Positions 9,132-49,779 of a stretch of DNA of 50,147 nt are shown here, in pieces. Numbering within the stretch: position 1 is the first letter of the stretch; each line of letters begins with the position of its first letter. The position numbers and the translations under genes were made by a program. This DNA is from Nanobdellota archaeon. Its GTDB lineage: Archaea; Nanobdellota; Nanobdellia; Woesearchaeales; JAHWHD01. The stretch lies in contig JAYENX010000056.1 of assembly GCA_034722435.1 (NCBI GenBank), forward strand, positions 9,181 through 59,327, in the 5' to 3' direction. The notes under the pieces are model-generated. The model was not told the DNA's origin. It made no database searches and saw only the letters and a program-made list of their open reading frames with translations.

Positions 9132-9590
9132 ATGGAAGGAAAAGTAAAATGGTACAATAGGAATAAAGGCTACGGCTTTATTGAAGGAGATGATGGTGAA
9201 GAATATTTTGTTCACTATACAGCTCTAAAAGAAACAGGATTTATACGTGAAAATGATCGCGTTGCTTTCGAAGCAGCTGAAGGCGAGAAAGGTAAACAAG
9301 CACAGAATGTAACCTTGCTACAAAAAGGTAGCGAGATTGCTGCAGGAGAGGCACCAGCTGAGGAAGCAGCTCCTGAAGAAGTTACTGCTGAAGAGCCTGC
9401 TCAAGAAGAAGCGCCAGCTGAAGAAGCAACTCCAGAGGAAGCTCCTGCTGAAGAACCTGCTCAAGAAGAAGCACCAGCTGAAGAAGCAACTCCAGAAGAA
9501 GCTCCTGCTGAAGAACCTGCACAGGAAGAAGCAACCCCAGAGGAAGCACCTGTAGAGGAAACTTCAGAAGAAGAGAAAAAAGAAGAATAA
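9132..9590 (+). CDS. csp: Cold-shock domain protein with acidic Ala/Glu/Pro repeat tail
   Basis: GKVKWYN..KGYGFI (RNP1) and YFVHY (RNP2); tail of EEAPAEE repeats. Confidence 0.95.
   Translation: MEGKVKWYNRNKGYGFIEGDDGEEYFVHYTALKETGFIRENDRVAFEAAEGEKGKQAQNVTLLQKGSEIAAGEAPAEEAAPEEVTAEEPAQEEAPAEEATPEEAPAEEPAQEEAPAEEATPEEAPAEEPAQEEATPEEAPVEETSEEEKKEE
9361..9540 (+). repeat. About three tandem 60-bp (20-aa) coding repeats
   Basis: Lines 9361, 9421 and 9481 align with a 60-nt period; the last two are near-identical. Confidence 0.9.
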
Positions 9591-10106: not shown

Positions 10107-11333
10107 TTATTTTGTAGGGTCTGTAACTTTCCCCATGAAAAGTATATTACCAGTATCTTTCTGCTGTATCAAGAAAATAAATGGATGATCAGCTTTGAAT
10201 TCAGTTGGCATAGCCATAGATTTTTCTATCATAATAACTGCTGTAGCAGCTGCTGCTTCTGTACCTTCCTCGTTAACTTCAACAAATGCTTGATGAATAA
10301 CCTTATCAATCTTAAGTTTAAGTGTTCCATCCATCCCTGAAAAATCGGCATCATTTGAAAAGGCCGTAGGCATACCCATTCCTATCAGATCTTCGGCCAT
10401 ATAATTTTTAGTTTCGAATTTAAACTTTGGTAAGGAGACTCGAATGTTCTGTTCTTTTAACATAGCTCGCCATTGGTTAATATTTTCAATGCTTAGTTCA
10501 GATTCAAGGTTTGTTAGATCTCCCTTTGGAAGAAGTATAAGCATGGAAAGTTCTTCACCGGAATAAGGAAGTTCAAGTATTTGTAAATCTTGTATTCCAA
10601 GATAGTTGAAATTTGCCTCCTCTCCACCAAGAGTCATCATAGGGACTGTGACAGTTTTTTCATTATTAACTTTAAAATCCTGGTCACGAGTATTGGATTT
10701 TTTAAATTTTTTCAACCAAGTACCCTTAAAATAGATTGCATTAGTTAAGACAAGTCTGGTTGCCTCCTTGAGATCGCCCTTACCAATTAAATCTTTAATT
10801 TTGTCATTAGTTTGGTCTTCAATCCAGTTGTTAATGGTTACTCGAGATTTTTCAGTTTCAGTTTTAAAATTTAAGTTAGTAACCTCACCACCATAAAATT
10901 GGTTAATAGTTGAAAAATATTCTGGTAGAAAAGTATAATCTTCCTGAGCCCATAAAGCGTTTGCCGTACTTAACTTGTATTCTTTACCTTTCTTGTTAAT
11001 TTCATTATAGATATTTGCATAAGCAGGTCTCATTATATCAATGTCAGGGTAATGAAAAACAGATTTCATTTCGTCTGCTGTTTGTCCTTTCGCGCCTTCA
11101 TATGTCATAGCTAGAGCTGTAGAAATACTGTAAGGTGAAAAGAATATGTTAGTATCAGAAATTATCTTTGAATAATAGTCAAGTGCAAACTGATTGTTCG
11201 CGTCAACTACAGCTTTGACTGCTTCAGGTGTAACAGTAGAATCGTCAACTGTCTTTGGTTGCGTACAGCCAGCAATTAAGAAAGCTGATATAATTCCGAT
11301 GATTATTAATAGTTTTAGTTTCATAAATGTCAT
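10107..11333 (-). CDS. Serpin with lipoprotein signal peptide
   Basis: Lipobox IAGC; NIFFSPYSIS, LTNAIYFKGTW, hinge EEGTEAAAAT, FKADHPFIF. Confidence 0.97.
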   Translation of the reverse strand: MTFMKLKLLIIIGIISAFLIAGCTQPKTVDDSTVTPEAVKAVVDANNQFALDYYSKIISDTNIFFSPYSISTALAMTYEGAKGQTADEMKSVFHYPDIDIMRPAYANIYNEINKKGKEYKLSTANALWAQEDYTFLPEYFSTINQFYGGEVTNLNFKTETEKSRVTINNWIEDQTNDKIKDLIGKGDLKEATRLVLTNAIYFKGTWLKKFKKSNTRDQDFKVNNEKTVTVPMMTLGGEEANFNYLGIQDLQILELPYSGEELSMLILLPKGDLTNLESELSIENINQWRAMLKEQNIRVSLPKFKFETKNYMAEDLIGMGMPTAFSNDADFSGMDGTLKLKIDKVIHQAFVEVNEEGTEAAAATAVIMIEKSMAMPTEFKADHPFIFLIQQKDTGNILFMGKVTDPTK

Positions 11334-30074: not shown

Positions 30075-31142
30075 ATGGAACTAAAGATACACGATAAAAG
30101 AAAGTTGCTTGTTCCAGTTATTTCTTTAGATGATGCCATTCTAAATGTATCGTTTCAGCTTAAGCATGGAAAATTTCAGCAAATATATCCAGTAACAGAA
30201 TTAATTAGAAGAGGGGATGTTAAAATAAGACATCTTGTTAATGCAAGAAAGTCGAGATCTCAAAAATTTGAACCAGGAACTTGTGCAGTTGTTAAAAAAA
30301 GAAAGCAAGAAGCGTCAATATCTTATAGAATAAAACTAAACCTTGATGATTTTGTTAATGATGTCATGGTTCCACAAAATATTGCCACATTAGCGGATAA
30401 ACTTGTGAAAGATGCTAAAAATGAAAAAGAAAAAGTTCATATCCTTTACGATTACATAAAAGATACTATAAAATATGGTCTTATACCGAAAAAAGTTGTA
30501 GAGGATTGTACAAAGTATCTCCAGAGAAATAAAAAAAAGAAAATTAAGGAAAGGTTGAAAGGGTACATAGGATATCTTAAAAGGAAAGTACGACATAATG
30601 CCATTAAAAATCCACATAATGGCGAATTAGAACGAATTGAAAAACAGTTTGATTCTAAAATGGCAAAGTGTCTAGATAATTTTATGAAATCTGGAAAAGC
30701 AAGGAAGAATTCAATTATGCGAACTCTTGCAAAGAATTTTCTTAACTATGTTGGAGATAATTATGAAGATTTCTTTCTTAATATATGGGACAAAAGCAAG
30801 CTCTATAATTTTAGACATCATGTTAATAATGGAGGGTATTGCGCAGTAATATCAAAGATATATCAGCAAATGCTTACGAGTCAGGGGATAGAAACGGTTT
30901 ATATCAAAGGTGTACACGTCACAGAACGGCATGGATGGCTTGCTGTAAAAGTTGATGAGCAGTGGAAGCATATGGATCCGACAAATACGAACGTCTCAGG
31001 AAGGTATCAAACAAGCGAAGATTATAGAGTTTTTTTAAGTTTCATGCCAATGAACGCCAAAATTAAAGAAGCACATTTACATTCTAAGAAAGATATTGAA
31101 AGAGGACAAAAGTACGGAGTGGTTAAACCCAATTTACAATAA
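30075..31142 (+). CDS. Transglutaminase-like domain protein
   Basis: GGYCAVIS, HGWLAV, WKHMDPT (Cys-His-Asp triad); likely start is the ATG at 30075. Confidence 0.8.
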   Translation: MELKIHDKRKLLVPVISLDDAILNVSFQLKHGKFQQIYPVTELIRRGDVKIRHLVNARKSRSQKFEPGTCAVVKKRKQEASISYRIKLNLDDFVNDVMVPQNIATLADKLVKDAKNEKEKVHILYDYIKDTIKYGLIPKKVVEDCTKYLQRNKKKKIKERLKGYIGYLKRKVRHNAIKNPHNGELERIEKQFDSKMAKCLDNFMKSGKARKNSIMRTLAKNFLNYVGDNYEDFFLNIWDKSKLYNFRHHVNNGGYCAVISKIYQQMLTSQGIETVYIKGVHVTERHGWLAVKVDEQWKHMDPTNTNVSGRYQTSEDYRVFLSFMPMNAKIKEAHLHSKKDIERGQKYGVVKPNLQ

Positions 31143-32118
31143 CGTCATCAGTTCGCCAGTAAGGATTTATTATTGTGTCAGTTGCAGGGTCTTGCCTTTT
31201 TCCTGCATTATATTCTAAGATACCTTGCCAGGCAATCATTGCCGCATTATCGATGTTATACTGGTTCTCTAAAGAATAACATTTAGCATCTCTTTCCTTG
31301 CACATTATGTTTGACATTTCTTGTAGTCGAGTATTACATGCCACACCTCCACCTAGTAAAAGTTCAGTTTTGTCACAGTGTGCCATCGCTCGCTCACTCA
31401 CTTCTAGAAGCATTGCGAAAACAGTTTCCTGGACAGAATAACAAATATCTTCTTTTGAATGTTCACCTTTTTTGATTAGTTGTTTTACAAAAGTTAATAT
31501 TCCTCCAAATGAAACGTCCATACCTTTTACGCAGTAAGGAATTTCAATATAATTTTTTCCTTGCTCTGCTAAAACTTGAATCTTTGGACCGCCCGGAAAA
31601 CCTAAGCCGAGTTCGCGGGCAACACAGTCTAAAAAGTTACCAACACCTATGTCTAAAGATTCGCCAAAGATTCTGAACTTACCCCCTTCATAGCCGATGA
31701 TTTGAGTGTTAGCGCCTGATGCGTAAAGTAAAACCGGATCTTTGGCTTCAGTTAAAAGTTGACCAATGGTTAAATGTGCAATACAATGGTTTACACCGAC
31801 TATAGGTTTATCATGGATTAATGCTAAGCATCGTGCAAAGAAAGCACCAATCCTTAAAGCGTTACCTAGACCAGGACCTTGCGAGAATGAAATAAGGTCA
31901 ATGTCTTTCATAGCGAGGTTAACTTTTTCTAAAGCTTGTTTTAATACAGTATCGCAAACCTTTACATGGTGGTCAGCAACCTTGTAAGGTATCATTCCGC
32001 CTTCGCCAGGTTTAGTTTTGTAGCTGTCAATTACATTAGAAAGGATTTTACCGTCAAAAGTAACAATAGAACAGCCAAAAGTGTGTGCAGTAGTTTCTAT
32101 TCCTAAACAATATTTCAT
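31123..32118 (-). CDS. kae1: tRNA N6-threonylcarbamoyltransferase Kae1/TsaD
   Basis: LGIETTAHT, GPGLG, VNHCIAH, YASGANTQ, GESLDIGVGN, GGVACN, IDNAAMIAW. Confidence 0.97.
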   Translation of the reverse strand: MKYCLGIETTAHTFGCSIVTFDGKILSNVIDSYKTKPGEGGMIPYKVADHHVKVCDTVLKQALEKVNLAMKDIDLISFSQGPGLGNALRIGAFFARCLALIHDKPIVGVNHCIAHLTIGQLLTEAKDPVLLYASGANTQIIGYEGGKFRIFGESLDIGVGNFLDCVARELGLGFPGGPKIQVLAEQGKNYIEIPYCVKGMDVSFGGILTFVKQLIKKGEHSKEDICYSVQETVFAMLLEVSERAMAHCDKTELLLGGGVACNTRLQEMSNIMCKERDAKCYSLENQYNIDNAAMIAWQGILEYNAGKRQDPATDTIINPYWRTDDVIVNWV

Positions 32119-32622: not shown

Positions 32623-32745
32623 AAGATTTATATATTAGTTATCACATACTTATAGATATAATACTAATAAATTAATACCCGAGAGAAAAAAACTTCTCAT
32701 TGATCCCCTCATGAATCGTACACACTCTCGGGGTTGATTTTTTTT
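32623..32745 (+). other. BRE-TATA followed by stem-loop and T8 tract: candidate sRNA or attenuator leader
   Basis: TTTATATA at 32627-32634; CCCGAGAG (32678-85) pairs with CTCTCGGG (32725-32); T8 at 32738-45. Confidence 0.35.
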
Positions 32746-32813
32746 AATGTTAGGTTATAATCATTATTATAATATAATTAAAATGAAAGCAGATATAGTA
32801 TTCAACTTAAAAA

Positions 32814-33185
32814 TTGCAAAGTTCAAATGCGGAGTTAGAGAGTTGGGAGAATATAGTGAAGGTGAAAAAAATGAATAAAGAAGATATACAAAAATATGTA
32901 GATAATAGACCCGAGGGTGAAGCACCCATTTTACTAACTGAACCTGTTGAAGGTTGTTATGCAATTACAGTACCAAGAGGAATGAATGGTAAAATAACAG
33001 CCTCTATATATGGTAACAAAGTAGAAATAACAACAAAAGGAATGCGTTTATCTGATATAACTTATTTAACCAATCAAGGTTATGAGTTGGATGCACAAAT
33101 CGGAGACAGAGTAAAAGGAACTGTATCTTCAAAAGATGAACTAGCAAATCTTGTAGATGCACTTGTTAATATGCCGACCAAGTAA
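32814..33185 (+). CDS. Hypothetical protein (true start may be downstream, e.g. MNKEDIQ)
   Basis: ORF with plausible composition, no motif. Confidence 0.55.
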   Translation: MQSSNAELESWENIVKVKKMNKEDIQKYVDNRPEGEAPILLTEPVEGCYAITVPRGMNGKITASIYGNKVEITTKGMRLSDITYLTNQGYELDAQIGDRVKGTVSSKDELANLVDALVNMPTK

Positions 33186-33260
33186 TTTTAAAATTATTTT
33201 TTAATTATTTCCCTAAATTCTACCAAAAAGTATTTATAAACCTTCAAAATATTAATTATT

Positions 33261-35159
33261 ATGATATTAAAAGATTTGTTGGATGCTGTAAAAGAATATA
33301 ATCCGAACGCTAATCTTGAACTAATAGAGAAAGCTTATAATTTTTCTAAAGAAGCTCATAAAGGCCAAAAACGGGTCTCAGGAGAGTCTTATTTCACGCA
33401 TTGTGCAGACGTAGCAATGATTCTTACAGAGCTAAAACTTAACTCTGTGACCATAGCTGCAGGTCTGTTACATGACGTACTCGAAGATACAAAAGTAAGA
33501 CCTAAAAAACTTGAAGAAGAGTTTGGACATGAAATTTATAGCCTTGTAGAAGGTGTTACCAAGATTGAACGTATAAGTCTTGAGATGACTGAAGAAGAAA
33601 AAGCTCAGTACATACGTAAAATACTTCTGGCGACAATTAAAGATGTTAGAGTTATACTGATTAAGTTAGTAGATAGATTACATAATATGAAAACTTTGAA
33701 GCATCTTTCACAAGAAAAACAATTAAGGATTGCAAGAGAGACGTTAGAGATTTATGCACCTATAGCTCACAAACTTGGCATCTACAAAATAAAGTCTGAA
33801 CTTGAAGATCTTAGTCTAAGGTATATCGATCCAGAAGCGTACCAAGATTTGAAAAATAAAATTTCTGAGAAACGGCACACTAGAGAGAAAAAAATATCCA
33901 AAGTTGTTCAGGTTCTAAAAAAAATGATTAAAGAGCAGGGTATGGAAGCGACAGTATATGGTCGAGCAAAGACGTTCTATAGTATATACAAAAAGATTAA
34001 AGTGAGGAATAAACAATTTGATACAATATATGATATGTTTGCGTTTAGGATTATAACTAAAAGTGTTGAAGATTGTTATAAAATTCTTGGAAAGATACAT
34101 TCTACCTGGAGATACCTTCCCTCAATGTTCAATGATTATATCGCAAACCCGAAACCTAACGGATACCAATCAATACATACAAAAGTACTTTATCAAGAGA
34201 AGCCTATAGAGATTCAGATAAGGAATGAAGATATGCACCTTGAGGCTGAAGAAGGGATTGCTGCGCATTGGCGGTATAAAGGAACTGAACGAGATAAAAA
34301 GTTTGATAGAAAAATAGGGTGGTTAAGGCAGTTACTTGAATGGGAAAGAACGTCAAAGAATGCAACAGACCTTATAGAGACTTTGAAAATTGATTTGTTT
34401 AAAGATGAAATAATAGCGTTCACACCAAAAGGTGAACCAATTGCTCTTCCTGAAGGAAGCACCACAATAGATTTTGCTTATGAGATTCATACTAATATAG
34501 GTAATCAATGTATAAGAGCTAAGGTTAACAACCAGATAGTTCCACTTCATTATGTACTTAGTTCCGGAGATGTTGTAGAAATAATGACTTCAGCAAAAGG
34601 TAAACCGTCAAGGCAATGGCTTAACTTTACAAGAACTAATGTTGCAAGATCAAAAATAAGAAGCGAGCTAGGGATTGAAGGAGAAAGAATGAAAAAACGT
34701 GCAAAAGAGACTCAAGATGAACTTGATAACATTGAAGTTAAAGGTGTTAAAAATCCTGTTTTGAAATTTACAAAATGTTGTAACCCTACTAAAGATAAAG
34801 TTATACACGGTTTTAAAATGAAAGACGGAAAAATAGCAGTACATAGTGAAGATTGTCCTAACCTTAATTCGATGACAAGATTAAAAACTGTCGAGGTAAA
34901 GTGGAAAACTAAAAGTTCAAAAGTTCAAAAAAAGAAACTTAACATAGTAGTTAACGACAGGTTAGGATTGCTTGCAGAAATTATGAATCTCATTTCTACA
35001 AAAAATATAAATATCTCATCAATATTCAGTGAAGCAAGAAAAAAGCATGTTTTAGTATCAGTGGTATTAGAAATATTACCTAATGATAATTTAGAAAAGT
35101 TAATCGAAGATCTTCAAATAATAAAGGATGTTATAGATGTTGTAAGTCTTGATGTTTAA
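33261..35159 (+). CDS. rel: Long RelA/SpoT homologue: bifunctional (p)ppGpp synthetase/hydrolase
   Basis: HD domain LLHDVLEDT and KLVDRLHNM; synthetase GRAKTFYSI, KPNGYQSIHT, EIQIR; TGS FTPKG...DFAYEIHT; ZFD KCCNP...HSEDC; C-terminal ACT. Confidence 0.96.
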   Translation: MILKDLLDAVKEYNPNANLELIEKAYNFSKEAHKGQKRVSGESYFTHCADVAMILTELKLNSVTIAAGLLHDVLEDTKVRPKKLEEEFGHEIYSLVEGVTKIERISLEMTEEEKAQYIRKILLATIKDVRVILIKLVDRLHNMKTLKHLSQEKQLRIARETLEIYAPIAHKLGIYKIKSELEDLSLRYIDPEAYQDLKNKISEKRHTREKKISKVVQVLKKMIKEQGMEATVYGRAKTFYSIYKKIKVRNKQFDTIYDMFAFRIITKSVEDCYKILGKIHSTWRYLPSMFNDYIANPKPNGYQSIHTKVLYQEKPIEIQIRNEDMHLEAEEGIAAHWRYKGTERDKKFDRKIGWLRQLLEWERTSKNATDLIETLKIDLFKDEIIAFTPKGEPIALPEGSTTIDFAYEIHTNIGNQCIRAKVNNQIVPLHYVLSSGDVVEIMTSAKGKPSRQWLNFTRTNVARSKIRSELGIEGERMKKRAKETQDELDNIEVKGVKNPVLKFTKCCNPTKDKVIHGFKMKDGKIAVHSEDCPNLNSMTRLKTVEVKWKTKSSKVQKKKLNIVVNDRLGLLAEIMNLISTKNINISSIFSEARKKHVLVSVVLEILPNDNLEKLIEDLQIIKDVIDVVSLDV

Positions 35160-35335
35160 GTTGCTTAACATAGTTATCACTAGTTCTTCACATAAAAATG
35201 TATTATAAACAAATGCAAACAGTATAGAATATAGCGGAGCATAGCTTACGCTAGATTGTTTATTCTGATCATTATTTTAAAAAAATGTTTAAAGAAAAAT
35301 AAAAAAATGATACCGTGCAATTCGTGGATTTCCAA

Positions 35336-38272
35336 GATGAACGGTTGGAAACTGCATGCTGAACCACTCGCCGAAGCTTGAGGCTTACACACCAGTTCCA
35401 TTAAACCTGTGTTTTACAGGAGCTCTACAATGTCTCTTTTCAAGGCGGGTTTCGAGCTTAGATGCTTTCAGCTCTTATCCCTTAATGCGTAGCTGCCCGG
35501 CATACCTTATCAGATAACCGGTCGACCAGTGGCATCGATCCTTCGTTCCTCTCGTACTAGAAGATTCTTCCTTTCAGACATCAACAATTCCAGTAGATAT
35601 CAAACAAACTGTCTCACAACGTTCTGAACCCAGCTCACGATCCCTTTTGATGGGTGAACACCCCCACCCTTGGACGCTTCTGCACGTCCAGGATAGGAAG
35701 AGCCGACATCGATGTAGCAAGCCGCGCCGTCGATTTACTCAAAATTTTGACGTTTTTTTGTCGAAATTTTATGAGCTCTCGGGCGCGACAACTCTGTTAT
35801 CCCCGGAGTAACTTTTCAGTCATTTCAAGCCCCCAATAAGGAGGACATTGAAGTTCGCTAGGCCAAACTTTCGTTTTTGAATTTCTTTCGATAGGAAACT
35901 CAATCAGGCTGGCTTTTGCCCTTGCACTCTACTCTGGATTTCTGACCCAGATGAGCCAACCATTGGGCCCTACTGATATCTTTTCAGCAGGGTGCCACCC
36001 CAGCCAAACTGCCCACATACCGCTGTCCCAAGATTTTCTCTCAGTTAGCAACGTAATTTCAGAAGAGTGGTGTTTCATTGGTGTCTATTCACGAACTGGC
36101 GTTCGTAACGTAACAACTCCCACTTACACTGTACAACTAAAATCACGTTACAACGATAAGCTGCAGTAAAGTTTCACGGGGTCTTCGCTTCCCACTGGAA
36201 TTCTCCGGCTTTTGCACCGGAAAAGAGTTTTCGGTGGATTCTAACTAGGGACAGTGACGATCTCGTTACGCCATTCATGCAGGCCGTCATTCAAACGGCA
36301 AGGCATTTCGCTACCTTAAGAGAGTTATAGTTACCCCCGCCGTTTACCAGCTCTTAGCTCAGTTGAAACCAAGTTTCAAGTACTGGCACTGGGCAGACGT
36401 CACCACCTGTACACACCCTTACGGGCTAGCAGGCAGTTAAGTTTTTGTTAAACAGTCGGACCGTCTTAGTCACTGCGCCCTGCAATCGCATTCATAAGAA
36501 CACAAAAGCAGGGACCCCTTATACCGAAGGCACGGGGCTAATTTGCCGAATTCCCTTAGTTAGATTAATCCATCACGCTTTAGGTTTCTCACCTAGGGGC
36601 ACCTGTGCTGGTTCTGGGTATAGATACCTAAGATTTGTTTTGATTCCTTTTTCACGGGCTCCAGATATCAGCCACATACCTCATACGAGATACTATTCCC
36701 AGATTTGGTCCAGTTCTCGCCATTACAGCACTCCCTGGACATATTCTGGTTAACATGAACGATGGTTCATGGTGACCTATTCAGAAACGTCAGAAATCAA
36801 ACTTGTGTTGCCACACATACTTAGGCAGTAAAGGAATATTAACCTTTTTCCCTTTCCTGACACTCGAATTACGAGCTCAGTTAGGATTAACTAACCCTTG
36901 ACTGATTTTCATTGTCAAGGAACCCTTGCCCTTTCAGCGGTACTGATTCTCACAGTACTCTGTTCCTACTACCACCGGGATCCTCATTTCTACCAGGTCC
37001 ACATCCTCTCACAAAAATGCTTCTACCCTAGCAGAACGCCTATCTATCATTCACTTTTAAGTGATCTACAGTATCGGTTATCAACTTAGCCCCGTCCATT
37101 TTCAAGGCCTATAACCTTGACAAGTAAGCTGTTACGCACTTATTATAGGATGGCTGCTTCTAAGCCAACCTCCTCGCTGTCTGTGGCTATAGACGCTTTT
37201 CACCCTTTAACACTTAGTTGATAATTAGGGACCTTAACTGTAGTCTGGGTTGTTCCCCTTTCGAGACTCACCCTTACGACGAGCCTCCGTCTCCCGAGGT
37301 CTACGATGCTCAAATATTCGGAGTTGGACAAGAAACCGAGGGATTTCTCCCCCTAAATCTCCAATCCGTATCTCTACCTTCATGAGCTATCTCGCTCGAG
37401 ACTTGACTGCGGCCAACTTTGATAGGAACCAGCTATCGCCGAACTCGATTGGCTTTTCACCCCTAACCCCAAGTTAGAAGAACACTTGTCCGTAGCACCT
37501 CTTCAGGCCTCCACAATGTTTAACCATTGCTTCACCTTACTCAGGGTTAGATCGTTCGGCTTCGGGTCGTATCCAAGTGACTAATGGCACGTTAGTACCA
37601 CGCCCCTTGCAAGCTGCGGGCATATCGGTTTCCCTATGAGTACTTTTTTACAAATTACTCTTGCCACTTAAATACACTCCCCGGCACGTTATTCAAAACG
37701 AACGGCACAACTCCTAAGAGCCGTACCCCTCTATGTCTGTTAGGTTTCAGAGTCTTTTCGCTCCCTATCAAGGGTTCTTTTCAACTTTCCATCACTGTAC
37801 TTGTTCGCTATCGGACTTTAAACGTATTTAAAGTTAGAAGTTATTGCCTCCCAGATTCCTGCTCAATTTCCAATGAACAGTACTCAAGATACTACTAGAC
37901 CTTTCAACTTTCCCCTACGTGACTATCACACTTTATAGTGCCTCTTTCCAGAGGACTTCAGGTCAGATGACTAAGGCTGAAAAGTAGTCTTACAACACCA
38001 CATCTCCTAACTATTTCTAGCAGGATTCAGTTTGCTTTGGGCCGTGTTCAGTCGCTCTTACTAACGGCATCTCAATTGATTTCTTTTCCTACAGGTACTA
38101 AGACGTTTCAATTCCCTGTGTTCCCAATCCTTACGGATTTTCTCCTAAGAGAAGGGATTTCCCATTCGGGGACCTTTGGTTCAATGACTACATGCGTCTC
38201 GCCAAAGTATAGTGTCGCTTGTCACACCCTTCATCAGCGTTAAAGCCAAGTCATCCACCTAACAGATTACAA
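35336..38272 (-). rRNA. rrl: 23S rRNA (archaeal) containing one 36-nt intron; ends approximate
   Basis: PTC segments GGGAUAACAG and CUCGAUGUCGG-like UACAUCGAUGUCGG, SRL AGUACGAGAGGAAC, 5' GGUGGAUGACUUGG. Confidence 0.97.
35735..35770 (-). other. BHB-type intron in 23S helix 89 (E. coli 2477/2478)
   Basis: Removal restores GAGAGCUCAU|AUCGACGGC; central helix GCUC/GAGU with bulges AU|A and AA|A. Confidence 0.85.
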
Positions 38273-38422
38273 AATTTGGAATTCCACGAATTATGCACGG
38301 TTTCATAAATATCAACCTCAAATCCTGAAAATACAATCAGGATTTGGTAAATTAAATGTCTGTTAAGACGTGAACTCACGAAAAATCGTTAAATTTTTCT
38401 AAGTCCTTTTGCTTGCGCAAAA

Positions 38423-38531
38423 TGGACCCGCCGGGACTTTCATCCACTAACAGGTCATTATATTAGTGATTTTTGAACCCGAGGCCCCCGCTTTGCAAGA
38501 GCGATGCTCTACCAGGCTGAGCTACGGGCCC
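38423..38531 (-). tRNA. tRNA-Ala(UGC) in the 16S-23S spacer; 35-nt intron at 59/60 (38437-38471)
   Basis: GGGCCCG...CU-UGC-AA...GGG-UUCA-AA|A...UGAA-AG|U-CCCGG; G3-U70 pair. Confidence 0.95.
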
Positions 38532-39315
38532 ATAAAAAAAATGAGGTAGGTTTGATTAAAATAATTAAAATAAAAAAAGGAGGTGATCCATCCGCAGGTT
38601 CCCCTACGGATACCTTGTGACGACTTAGCCCTCCTCACAAAGCTTAGATTCGAACTACCCAAAAGGTGGTTCTCATCTAAACCCTGCTCGGGTGGCTTGA
38701 CGGGCGGTGTGTGCAAGGCACAGGGACATATTCACTGGACGCTGATGACGTCCAATTACTAGGGATTCCAGCGTCACGAGGATGAGTTTCAATCCTCGAT
38801 CCGAACTTGGGTAAGGTTTCGAGGCTTAACTTCCCCTTTCGGGGTCGTATCCCATTGTCCTTACCATTGTTGCGCGCGTGTAGCCCAGAGGATTCGGAGC
38901 ATACTGACCTACCGTAGCCTGCACCTTCCTCCACGTTTCCATGGCAGTCTCTACAATGTGCACGCCTTCTAAAGAAAACGTTAGCAATTGTAGACACAGG
39001 TCTCGCTCGTTGCCAGACTTAACTGGACACCTTGCGGCACGAGCTGACGGCGGCCATGCACTACCTCTCGGCTCGTCAAGTAAGGTCTTTAGCCTGACTT
39101 TCATCCTGCCGTCGCCCCTGGTGAGATTTTCTGTGTTGAATTAGATTAAACCGCACGCCGCACCCCTTGTGGTGTGCCCCCGCCAATTCCTTTAAGTTTC
39201 AGCCTTGCGACCGTACTTCCCAGGCGGCGAGCTTAACACCTTCGCTCCGACACCGCGCATGTATTAACATACGCGACACCTAGCTCGCAGAGTTTACAGC
39301 TGGGACTACTCGGGT

Positions 39316-39417
39316 AGTTAGCGAGTGAATCATCATATAGCAACTTCTTTCGTTCACTTGTAATAGATTTATGGAACAACTTACAAGTTATTCCAGAAGT
39401 CAGACATGATTCCTCGT
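39316..39417 (-). other. 102-nt BHB intron in the 16S helix 24 (790) loop (E. coli 793/794)
   Basis: Central helix UUAG/CUAA, bulges AU|A and CU|A; ligation gives GGAUUAGAU|ACCCGAGUAGUCC. Confidence 0.9.
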
Positions 39418-39793
39418 ATCTAATCCGGATTGCTCCCCCAGCTTTCGTCCCTCACCGTCGGATCCGTTCTGGTTAGACGCCTTCGCCACTGGCGGTCCTT
39501 CAGGGATTATAGCATTTTACCGCTCCCCCCGAAATACCTCTAACCCCTCTCCGGTCCCAAGTCTGACAGTCTCTTTTGCACGCTGTTGAGTTAAGCCCAA
39601 CAATTTCACAGAAGATTTACCAAACAGGCTACGGACGCTTTAGGCCCAATAAAACTGGTTGCTACTTGTGGCGCAGGTGTTACCGCGGCGGCTGGCACCC
39701 GTCTTTCCCACCACTTATTCGCCAAGATTTTTACTCTTAACAAAAGCCCATACAATGTATGAGCACTTGGGGTTCCCTTATCACACTTGCGTG

Positions 39794-39832
<39 letters not shown>

Positions 39833-39904
39833 AGGACCAGTGTCTCAGTGTCCTTCTCGGGGCTACCTCTCTCAAGGCCCCTATTGATCGTCGGCTTGGT
39901 GGGC

Positions 39905-39947
39905 ATATAATTTTTCAAAAAGAAATTATAAGATTTCCTTCGAAAAT
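39905..39947 (-). other. 43-nt BHB intron in the 16S helix 11 loop (E. coli about 265/266)
   Basis: Central helix GUAA/UUAU, bulges AG|A and AU|G; ligation gives GGUGGGGUAAAG|GCCCACC. Confidence 0.85.
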
Positions 39948-40383
39948 CTTTACCCCACCAACAACCTAATCAACCGCCGGCTCATCCTTGGGCATTACTT
40001 TTGAAAGAATGCATTTTCCAATTACGTTCTCTTATCCGGTATTAGCCTCAGTTTCCCAAGGTTATTCCAGACCCAAGGTTAGATTATCGACGTGTTACTG
40101 AGCAGTTTGCCTCTATTACTAGAAGACTTGCATGGCTTAGTCGAACCCCAATAGCAGCAACCTCCCGCAGGATCAACGGGATTTGTTTCTATGGTCGCAA
40201 TTTTTCTTAGCTTATTAGGAATTTTTAGGATTTGATCTTTAATCAAACCTACTCATTCATGCTTAATATATCTCAATTAAGCATACATTGGTAAATATTA
40301 ACCACCTATATGTGTTTTCAGAATACAAATATCTAAAATATAGGTAATGGTGGCGATTAGTGTCTTTTTGGAGAAAGTGCTTG

Positions 40384-48228: not shown

Positions 48229-49779
48229 TTATGGTCTTTGATCAGGGTTAGTGTCTTCAGTTATTTCTATTCTATAATTAAAACGTAATGACAGTTGTAG
48301 TATATCATCAGATAGTTCTTTAACTCCGATAAGGCCGCGAGGTTGGCCAATACCTTGAGACTCATGTTTATGTTTCTGTGGCGCTGGTTTATTTTTTACG
48401 TTTCGCAAGTTAGTAGCGGTTTTCATGATTTGTTTTCGACGTTCAGGTGAAATTTCTTGATAATGCTCCAGTAAAAAATCGGATCTAGTAGGGTGTCTTA
48501 AACTTTTCAAAGCTTTAGCTTCAATCTGTCTAATACGTTCTCTAGTAACATCGAATTTTAAACCTACTTCTTCGAGCGTTAACCCTCCTTGATTGCGGTT
48601 TCCAATTCCGAATCTAAAACGAAGTACAGATGCTTCTCTTGGATCTAAAGTATCTAGAACTGTTTCAAGGTCTTGTTTCAGTGTCGAGTCTGTGGCTGCC
48701 TGTTCCACGTCAAGTGCATTAGAATCAGGCACGAAATCGCCCAAGTACGAATTATCTCCGTCAGATCCTAAAGGAGTTTCAAGAGAAATAGGATTTTGTG
48801 CGGTTTTAAGTACATCTTCAACCTTTTTAGGGGACATCTTCATAGCCTCAGCAACCTCTAGAGTGGTTGCAGGCCTACCTAATTGCTGCGTAAGGTATAT
48901 TTGATGAGTTCGGACTTTGTTAATCATCTCGTTCATATGTACAGGAACTCTAACAGTTCTTGACTGGTCAGCTATAGCTCTAGTGATTGACTGACGAATC
49001 CACCATATTGCGTAAGTAGAAAATTTGAAACCTTTCCTGTACTTAAACTTCTCAACAGCACGGATAAGGCCTTGGTTACCTTCCTGGATAACGTCTTGTA
49101 AAGAAAGTCCTCGCCCGGAATATTTTCTTGCAACATTAACCACCAGTTTAAGATTAGCATTTATCATAAGGTCTTTAGCTACTTTATCACCCTTTTCTAT
49201 TCGTTTTGCAAGTTCGGCCTCATCTTCTCGCGAAAGAAGAGCGGTTCTGGCAATCTCCGTAAGATATGATTGAACATTATCGCTAAGTACAGTCGCAGTT
49301 TTTTTATTCTTTTTACCAGATTTAGCAGTCTTAGATTCTTTAGGTTTTATTATGATAGAACCATCACCATTAACATTATCCTCTTCATCCCCATCAATCC
49401 CGTAATCATCATTAATCCGATTAATTGACATGATATAAGATTCGAAGCAAGTGTTGAAACTATAAATGGAAAGTTCAGAATAAGAAAAATTAATATCTTC
49501 TTTAGCAAGGTCAAGGTCTTCCAATAGGGATTCTAATTGTTCAGGTTGAATCACATTTTGTTGGAGGGCATCAGAAGAAATAATGTCATCAGTCAATGCT
49601 CTAGATTGTAAAGAGGCTGCAAGGAAGTAAGTATCCTCGTCAACCTTTCGCATAGTTGATTGCGATAAATATGTTATATACTCTTGGGTACATCCTACAC
49701 GTTCAAGTTCAACAGTATTTATCCAAGTAAGGGGTTCTGCGTTTGTTATAAGATTTAGATATTTTTTAGAGGGATTCAT
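48229..49779 (-). CDS. Primary-type (RpoD/SigA-like) sigma-70 family protein
   Basis: Region 1.2 [10 protein letters not shown]; 2.1-2.4 [43 protein letters not shown]; region 3 PISLETP; 4.2 [19 protein letters not shown]. Confidence 0.95.

Follow-up and report, generated by a model that had tools for sequence, protein, structure and literature searches.

A long RelA/SpoT homologue, apparently active, in the chromosome of a DPANN archaeon

We analysed a stretch of 50,147 nucleotides (the window) from a Nanobdellota archaeon of the order Woesearchaeales (assembly GCA_034722435.1, contig JAYENX010000056.1, positions 9,181 to 59,327 of the forward strand). One of its open reading frames (ORFs), at 33261-35159 on the forward strand, encodes a genuine long RelA/SpoT homologue (RSH) in an archaeal chromosome, apparently an active one. 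The gene, rel, starts with ATG and encodes a protein of 632 amino acids (aa), Rel, which, judged from its sequence, is predicted both to make and to degrade guanosine tetra- and pentaphosphate, (p)ppGpp. We consider it probable that Rel is an active bifunctional enzyme and the sole detectable RSH of its genome, and that its gene goes back to a single bacterial acquisition; in the likeliest model, its C-terminal half would be switched by uncharged tRNA and its product would act on GTPases.

Domains, active sites and copy number of Rel

The gene and the domains that it encodes lie as follows in the window:

33261..35159, forward strand: rel, long RelA/SpoT homologue of the bifunctional Rel type, 632 aa (ORF, Pfam, TIGR00691 and structure matches)
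33333..33782, forward strand: HD (p)ppGpp hydrolase domain, aa 25-174, with R38, H47, H71-D72, E75-D76, D138 and N142
33960..34286, forward strand: SYNTH (p)ppGpp synthetase domain, aa 234-342, with R235, K237, K245, D258, Y302, H306, E317 and Q319
34413..34589, forward strand: TGS domain, aa 385-443, with H410
34596..34760, forward strand: remnant of the Helical (AH) domain, aa 446-500, with P449, W453, L454, A462 and I466 kept
34761..34904, forward strand: zinc-finger domain (ZFD/RIS), aa 501-548, with C506, C507, H528, C532, K542 and W548
34923..35144, forward strand: ACT/RRM domain, aa 555-628

An earlier note on this DNA had read the ORF as a full-length Rel with HD, synthetase, TGS, AH, ZFD and ACT domains, and both the family profiles and the key residues bear this out. 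The Pfam matches are HD_4 at aa 25-174 (5.9e-47), RelA_SpoT at 234-342 (1.8e-38), TGS at 385-443 (1.8e-21) and ACT_4 at 559-627 (4.1e-9), and the precomputed Pfam list for Rel also holds PF28438, RelA_RIS, the zinc-finger domain. The NCBIfam model TIGR00691 (spoT_relA) is matched with 662.8 bits against a cut-off of 499.2, and with 604.7 bits in a six-frame search of the genome. As in a long RSH, HD is followed by RelA_SpoT in one chain, with TGS and ACT/RRM at the C-terminal end. The best match to a solved structure is B. subtilis Rel 6yxa (E 1.7e-143, residues 4-492), while mycobacterial Rel 8fr8 matches in two segments (aa 2-473 against chain residues 70-550, aa 487-626 against 647-789) that leave about 83 residues of the Helical domain without a counterpart in the archaeal protein. 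An alignment of 100 sequences gave a confident AlphaFold2 model (mean pLDDT 88.7), and the top Foldseek matches of this model, all of them full-length, are RelA in its ribosome-bound form, B. subtilis Rel and the full-length SpoT structure.

Residue columns were tallied in 120 archaeal homologues and in 121 long bacterial-type representatives. All hydrolase residues are present in Rel (R38, H47, H71, D72, E75, D76, D138, N142), and the hydrolase set of RelSeq, H53, H77, D78, D144 and E81-D82, corresponds to H47, H71, D72, D138 and E75-D76. The synthetase site is likewise complete (R235, K237, K245, D258, K298, N300, Y302, H306, E317, Q319), with RelSeq D264, E323, R241, K243, K251, Y308, H312 and Q325 matched by D258, E317, R235, K237, K245, Y302, H306 and Q319. 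In the regulatory half, the histidine of TGS, H410, is kept in 120/120 archaeal and 121/121 bacterial sequences; its equivalents, H420 of B. subtilis Rel and H432 of E. coli RelA, stack on the CCA end of the tRNA (PMC7797070). The zinc-finger set C506, C507, H528 and C532 is present, together with K542, and in RelA the double-Cys motif docks on the A-site finger (PMC7058999). In the archaeal and the bacterial group alike, the residues of catalysis, CCA binding and zinc coordination vary little or not at all. Identity within the archaeal clade, compared with that among the bacterial sequences, is 0.55 vs 0.55 for TGS, 0.36 vs 0.45 for ZFD and 0.26 vs 0.23 for ACT, and since these per-domain values match the bacterial level, the regulatory half is under selection and not decaying.

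The source genome counts 1.30 Mb in 60 contigs (94.5% complete, 2% contamination), and the window is part of its contig C56. A search of this genome with the RelA_SpoT and HD_4 profiles at E ≤ 1 found no second RSH and returned one domain of each only.

The trimmed Helical domain and the proposed switching of Rel

The main departure from bacterial Rel lies between TGS and the double-Cys motif, where the linker measures 60 aa in Rel and 59-70 aa in 120/120 archaeal homologues, against 122-157 aa in nearly all bacterial representatives. Because this linker is so short, about two thirds of the Helical domain must be gone in the archaeal clade, a deletion of some 80 aa with respect to bacterial Rel; in B. 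subtilis the domain spans residues 470-583, about 114 aa (PMC7797070). The part that is retained is the most conserved portion of the domain, the first helix motif with P449, W453, L454, A462 and I466. In the AlphaFold2 model only helices 451-455 and 460-470 are left in the Helical region, followed by a low-confidence loop at 471-484, and the shortened AH domain of the earlier note, correct in itself, was thus even understated.

A tree was built from the 150 best cluster representatives of an exhaustive HMMER search and from named archaeal proteins, with the linker columns removed. The 26 short-linker representatives make up one side of a branch (FastTree support 99, IQ-TREE SH-aLRT 98), so that the RSH phylogeny which had been proposed as a check of the gene places the archaeal proteins in one clade. 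Its named members are Woesearchaeota or Nanoarchaeota, and the protein nearest to Rel in the databases, 80% identical, carries the NCBI name 'RelA/SpoT family protein [Candidatus Woesearchaeota archaeon]'. Two deep-branching members without a name are in archaeal context, with genes for class-I lysyl-tRNA synthetase (LysRS), Trm56 and TFIIE nearby. In these two (L020:2489-6869 and the contig of P0201), rel stands beside the class-I LysRS gene or one gene away from it, and in one of them Trm56 and another aminoacyl-tRNA synthetase gene are near rel as well; the vicinity of rel and LysRS may hint at a common theme of tRNA charging. Among the long forms, the best-scoring ones were a protein of a Deltaproteobacteria metagenome-assembled genome and a Mitsuokella protein.

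Shortened linkers are also found in bacterial-type representatives, eleven of them with 76-98 aa and one with 43 aa, and on the tree these are scattered singly among long forms, which amounts to 9-10 separate changes. The Rel with the 43-aa linker (P0215, L023:6001-7968) has 655 aa and is encoded on a 4.19-Mb contig, beside genes for a Mur ligase and FtsX/MacB. Because this form sits in a normal bacterial context, trimming is compatible with the bacterial ribosome.

The mechanism that we propose is conditional at each of its steps. The ancestor of the archaeal class would have acquired rel once from Bacteria, with vertical inheritance and lineage-specific losses since then, and early in the archaeal clade the Helical domain, which lies between TGS and ZFD, would have lost its larger part, the first helix, the CCA histidine of TGS, ZFD and ACT/RRM being kept under a constraint as strong as the bacterial one. 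SYNTH would transfer pyrophosphate from ATP to GDP or GTP to give (p)ppGpp, which the Mn-dependent HD domain would hydrolyse, and the C-terminal half would switch the enzyme between a hydrolase-on and a synthetase-on state, with uncharged tRNA as the signal and the archaeal ribosome as the probable site. The (p)ppGpp so made would compete with GTP and GDP on universal GTPases (aIF5B, aEF2, aEF1A and the signal recognition particle (SRP) pair SRP54/FtsY), and control of RNA polymerase of the bacterial type would not be expected in an archaeon. Searches of this 94.5%-complete genome found no HGPRTase (TIGR01203), guanylate kinase (PF00625), Ppx/GppA (PF02541) or HflX (TIGR03156), the last giving only weak GTPase-domain matches. 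Because these classical targets and helpers were not found, the universal GTPases of translation and SRP are the most plausible ones, as can reasonably be inferred from bacterial knowledge alone.

Sensing of the ribosome or of tRNA is what the CCA histidine, the double-Cys motif, the conserved basic positions of ZFD and the fixed length of the linker point to. On the other side of the balance, a number of observations weigh against the mechanism as we propose it. Most of the Helical domain is gone and the ribosome is foreign to the enzyme, and with its 60-aa linker Rel lacks the complete Helical domain of a ribosome-dependent stringent factor. In B. subtilis Rel the Helical domain and TGS are both needed for stable and specific tRNA binding, and on the ribosome the Helical domain contacts the A/R-tRNA (PMC7797070); since this tRNA-binding domain is about two thirds deleted, activation by ribosome and tRNA may have been weakened or replaced. 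The residue after the ZFD histidine is Ser in Rel, replacing a basic residue, and is K/R in 59% of the clade. A basic RXKD motif marks bifunctional Rel and an acidic EXDD marks RelA; at this position (aa 289-292) Rel reads MFND, neither basic nor acidic, and the motif is degenerate in the lineage, with QFSD, MFSD and KFSD in close relatives, the majority form of the clade being RFKD (43/120). Last, the archaeal clade has all 133 other sampled representatives as its sister group and is nested in no phylum, and no donor phylum emerges.

The alternative that survives best, somewhat short of an even chance in our estimate, is that Rel is active but no longer senses the ribosome. It would then resemble SpoT, the regulation of which is independent of the ribosome, and its C-terminal domains would set the balance of hydrolase and synthetase by intramolecular autoinhibition or by binding a metabolite, a protein partner or free uncharged tRNA. 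The loss of about 80 aa of Helical domain throughout the clade fits this explanation, as do the unlikeness of the archaeal ribosome to that of the donor and the finding that TGS alone gives no stable tRNA binding in B. subtilis Rel (PMC7797070). The segment that connects SYNTH and TGS (aa 343-384, window 34287-34412) hints in the same direction, since with an identity of 0.46-0.64 in the archaeal clade, vs 0.28 in bacteria, it may be a clade-specific regulatory surface. However, the CCA histidine, the double-Cys motif and the basic ZFD positions are kept in 120/120 or most of the archaeal sequences, the Helical remnant is the most conserved helix of its domain, and the linker is held at 59-70 aa, as expected where a fixed distance has to be spanned; moreover, the bacterium with the 43-aa linker shows that trimming is tolerated together with a bacterial ribosome.

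A true archaeal stringent response is a bolder proposal, and we put it forward tentatively, as somewhat unlikely when taken in full. The trimmed Rel would dock on the archaeal ribosome through TGS, ZFD and ACT and read uncharged tRNA in the A site, the linker of 59-70 aa being adapted to the intersubunit geometry of the archaeal ribosome, and (p)ppGpp would throttle translation and the SRP GTPases in about 45% of the DPANN class.

We give little credence to the view that Rel is a relic which has lost one or both activities and is hydrolase-only, synthetase-only or purely regulatory. Hydrolase positions are substituted in some archaeal homologues (D72N in 3/120, D76 replaced in 29/120), and this, together with the degenerate RXKD of the lineage, could be read as decay, but in the Rel described here all catalytic residues of both sites are intact and purifying selection extends over all domains. 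Rel is also the only RSH of its genome, and bacteria are poisoned by a synthetase that has no hydrolase beside it (Atkinson 2011).

The rel locus and its distribution

The setting of rel is archaeal throughout the window, which also encodes eIF6, prefoldin alpha and FtsY. The features of the locus referred to here are:

1838-2767: TFB gene
31123..32118, reverse strand: kae1 (TsaD/Kae1 family), divergent neighbour of rel; context, and evidence of long residence
33233..33238, forward strand: TTTATA box, 28 nt 5' of the rel ATG, with an A-rich stretch before it (consensus only)
35325..38286, reverse strand: archaeal 23S rRNA, convergent with rel; context, outside the system (rRNA model match)
38578..40183, reverse strand: archaeal 16S rRNA (rRNA model match)

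That rel lies tail-to-tail with the rRNA operon, as had been noted before, is correct, with a spacer of 165 nt between the rel stop at 35159 and the 3' end of 23S at 35325. The TATA-like box and the host-like codon usage also hold: TTTATA stands at -28, and the composition of rel (GC 0.328, GC at third codon positions 0.245, codon score 0.177) falls inside the distribution of the window, where the codon score has a mean of 0.186 and a standard deviation of 0.064. No Shine-Dalgarno sequence precedes rel, and the match to the consensus implies a putative archaeal-style promoter with a leaderless or near-leaderless transcript; similar boxes at -22 to -32 precede many other genes of the window, and in a genome of 33% GC they are weak evidence.

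rRNA operons are common misassembly points and a bacterial-type sigma-70 gene lies on the same contig, but a bacterial contaminant or a contig chimera joined near the rRNA operon is effectively refuted by the archaeal genes on both sides of rel (TFB, kae1, eIF6, prefoldin, 16S/23S), by orthologues in 132/301 genomes, single-contig assemblies included, by a similar neighbourhood in two relatives (G001 and G002), by conserved synteny with kae1 and by host-like composition, codon use and promoter.

The distribution check was run within the phylum, on 301 genomes that form an even sample of its high-quality genomes, and an orthologue of rel was found in 132 of them. Presence by family is 33/36 in f45, 6/6 in f40, 7/7 in f44, 8/8 in f54 and 0/24 in f41, and this distribution by families is the one that vertical descent with losses would leave. 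Within the order, 18 of the 41 genomes have a full-length orthologue over the cut-off, among them one single-contig genome of 1.3 Mb and assemblies of three and four contigs. As a divergent neighbour of rel, kae1 recurs in two further families, and it lies 5 kb from rel in the single-contig genome. In G001, of the same genus, and G002, of the same family, rel and an archaeal 23S gene likewise converge at their 3' ends, separated by a gene of 648 aa or 216 aa; both genomes are unpublished, and the placement near 23S in relatives and the adjacency of kae1 in G001 rest on them. No rRNA lies near rel in distant relatives. Since the adjacency to rRNA is limited to one family and interrupted by other genes in these two relatives, it has no functional meaning, and a functional link between rel and the rRNA operon was rejected. 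A conserved operon partner was rejected too: the upstream ORF of 123 aa (32814-33185) has no Pfam match and no counterpart beside rel in 14 related loci.

The sigma-70 gene on the contig of rel (window 48229-49779, reverse strand) is of full bacterial type, with regions 1.2, 2, 3 and 4 in 515 aa, and two further sigma-70 paralogues are present in the genome (G000:C9:16116-16934 and G000:C59:2593-3447). Homologues occur in 18/41 genomes of the order, the single-contig one included. No link with rel is seen among the 41 relatives, of which 9 have both genes, 9 rel only, 9 sigma-70 only and 14 neither.

Other observations concern the surroundings of the gene. Upstream of rel, in a 290-nt gap between divergent small ORFs, an 8-bp inverted repeat (cccgagag...ctctcggg, enclosing about 40 nt of loop) precedes eight T (window 32679-32748, forward strand); it could be a terminator or a small RNA. 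The 16S match (38578-40183, reverse strand) is 1606 nt long against a model of 1478 positions, which indicates a gene with insertions. In the 16S-23S spacer there is a partial tRNA match of 58 nt (34.8 bits, 38474-38531, reverse strand) for which ARAGORN makes no call, as expected for an intron-containing tRNA. Farther away, this 1.3-Mb DPANN genome encodes a full-length serpin (10107-11333, reverse strand; Pfam Serpin, E 1e-123), and a gene for a cold-shock-domain protein (9132-9590) adjoins it.

Known systems and the meaning of an archaeal Rel

The closest known systems are the bifunctional Rel proteins of Bacillota (B. subtilis Rel 6yxa/6htq/8acu, S. aureus Rel 7oiw, RelSeq 1vj7), which have the same order of domains, HD-SYNTH-TGS-(Helical)-ZFD-ACT, about 47% identity over the catalytic half, and the hydrolase, the synthetase, the TGS histidine (H420) and the ZFD Cys/His in common with Rel. 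They differ in size, with about 730 aa and a linker of about 130-150 aa where the archaeal protein has 632 aa, 60 aa and MFND in the place of RXKD, and in their host, which here is an archaeon with archaeal ribosomes, without bacterial RNA polymerase control, and with the targets HprT and Gmk not found. E. coli RelA on the stalled ribosome (5iqr, 5kpv) is the top full-length structural match and shares the CCA histidine (H432), the double-Cys motif (C602/C603) and ACT/RRM; unlike the archaeal Rel, which has an intact hydrolase site and has lost most of the Helical domain, it combines a dead hydrolase and EXDD with a Helical domain that lines the A/R-tRNA. A. baumannii SpoT (7qpr), a bifunctional long RSH with the same domains, is likewise a full-length structural match, at 24-25% identity. 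The bacterial short-linker Rel P0215 (43 aa) represents an independent shortening of the same region, whereas in archaea the trimmed form defines one large clade.

The earlier note had presented a long RSH in an archaeon as a departure from what is known of the domain. The protein is genuine, but the novelty is weakened, since RelA/SpoT has been published in DPANN archaea: Li et al. 2021 (mSystems, PMC8407392) give its frequency as 41.7% in Woesearchaeota, 69% in Diapherotrites, 21.3% in Pacearchaeota and 19% in Nanoarchaeota and infer a bacterial origin, in one sentence and without an analysis of domains or residues. The rel gene described here belongs to this set, and with the presence of the gene in these archaea already published, Rel is a solid addition to the reported group. 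In the literature that we searched, no description was found of the clade-wide deletion in the Helical domain, of the monophyly of the clade or of the synteny with kae1. Before that report, Atkinson et al. 2011 had found no long RSH in archaea, and reviews up to 2023 hold that (p)ppGpp has no important role in archaea and was never detected there (PMC10249747, PMC8646023).

In one large DPANN class, a fully equipped Rel under strong purifying selection is nevertheless retained by nearly half of the genomes sampled. With all its catalytic residues, its status as the sole RSH and no obvious targets of the bacterial type, the Rel of this archaeon is a clean example for testing the use of alarmones in archaea. 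The loss of most of the Helical domain across the clade is in turn an experiment of nature, a deletion that bears on the way in which long RSHs read tRNA and the ribosome, and a true stringent response, if these archaea have one, would be the first case of growth control by an alarmone in the domain Archaea.

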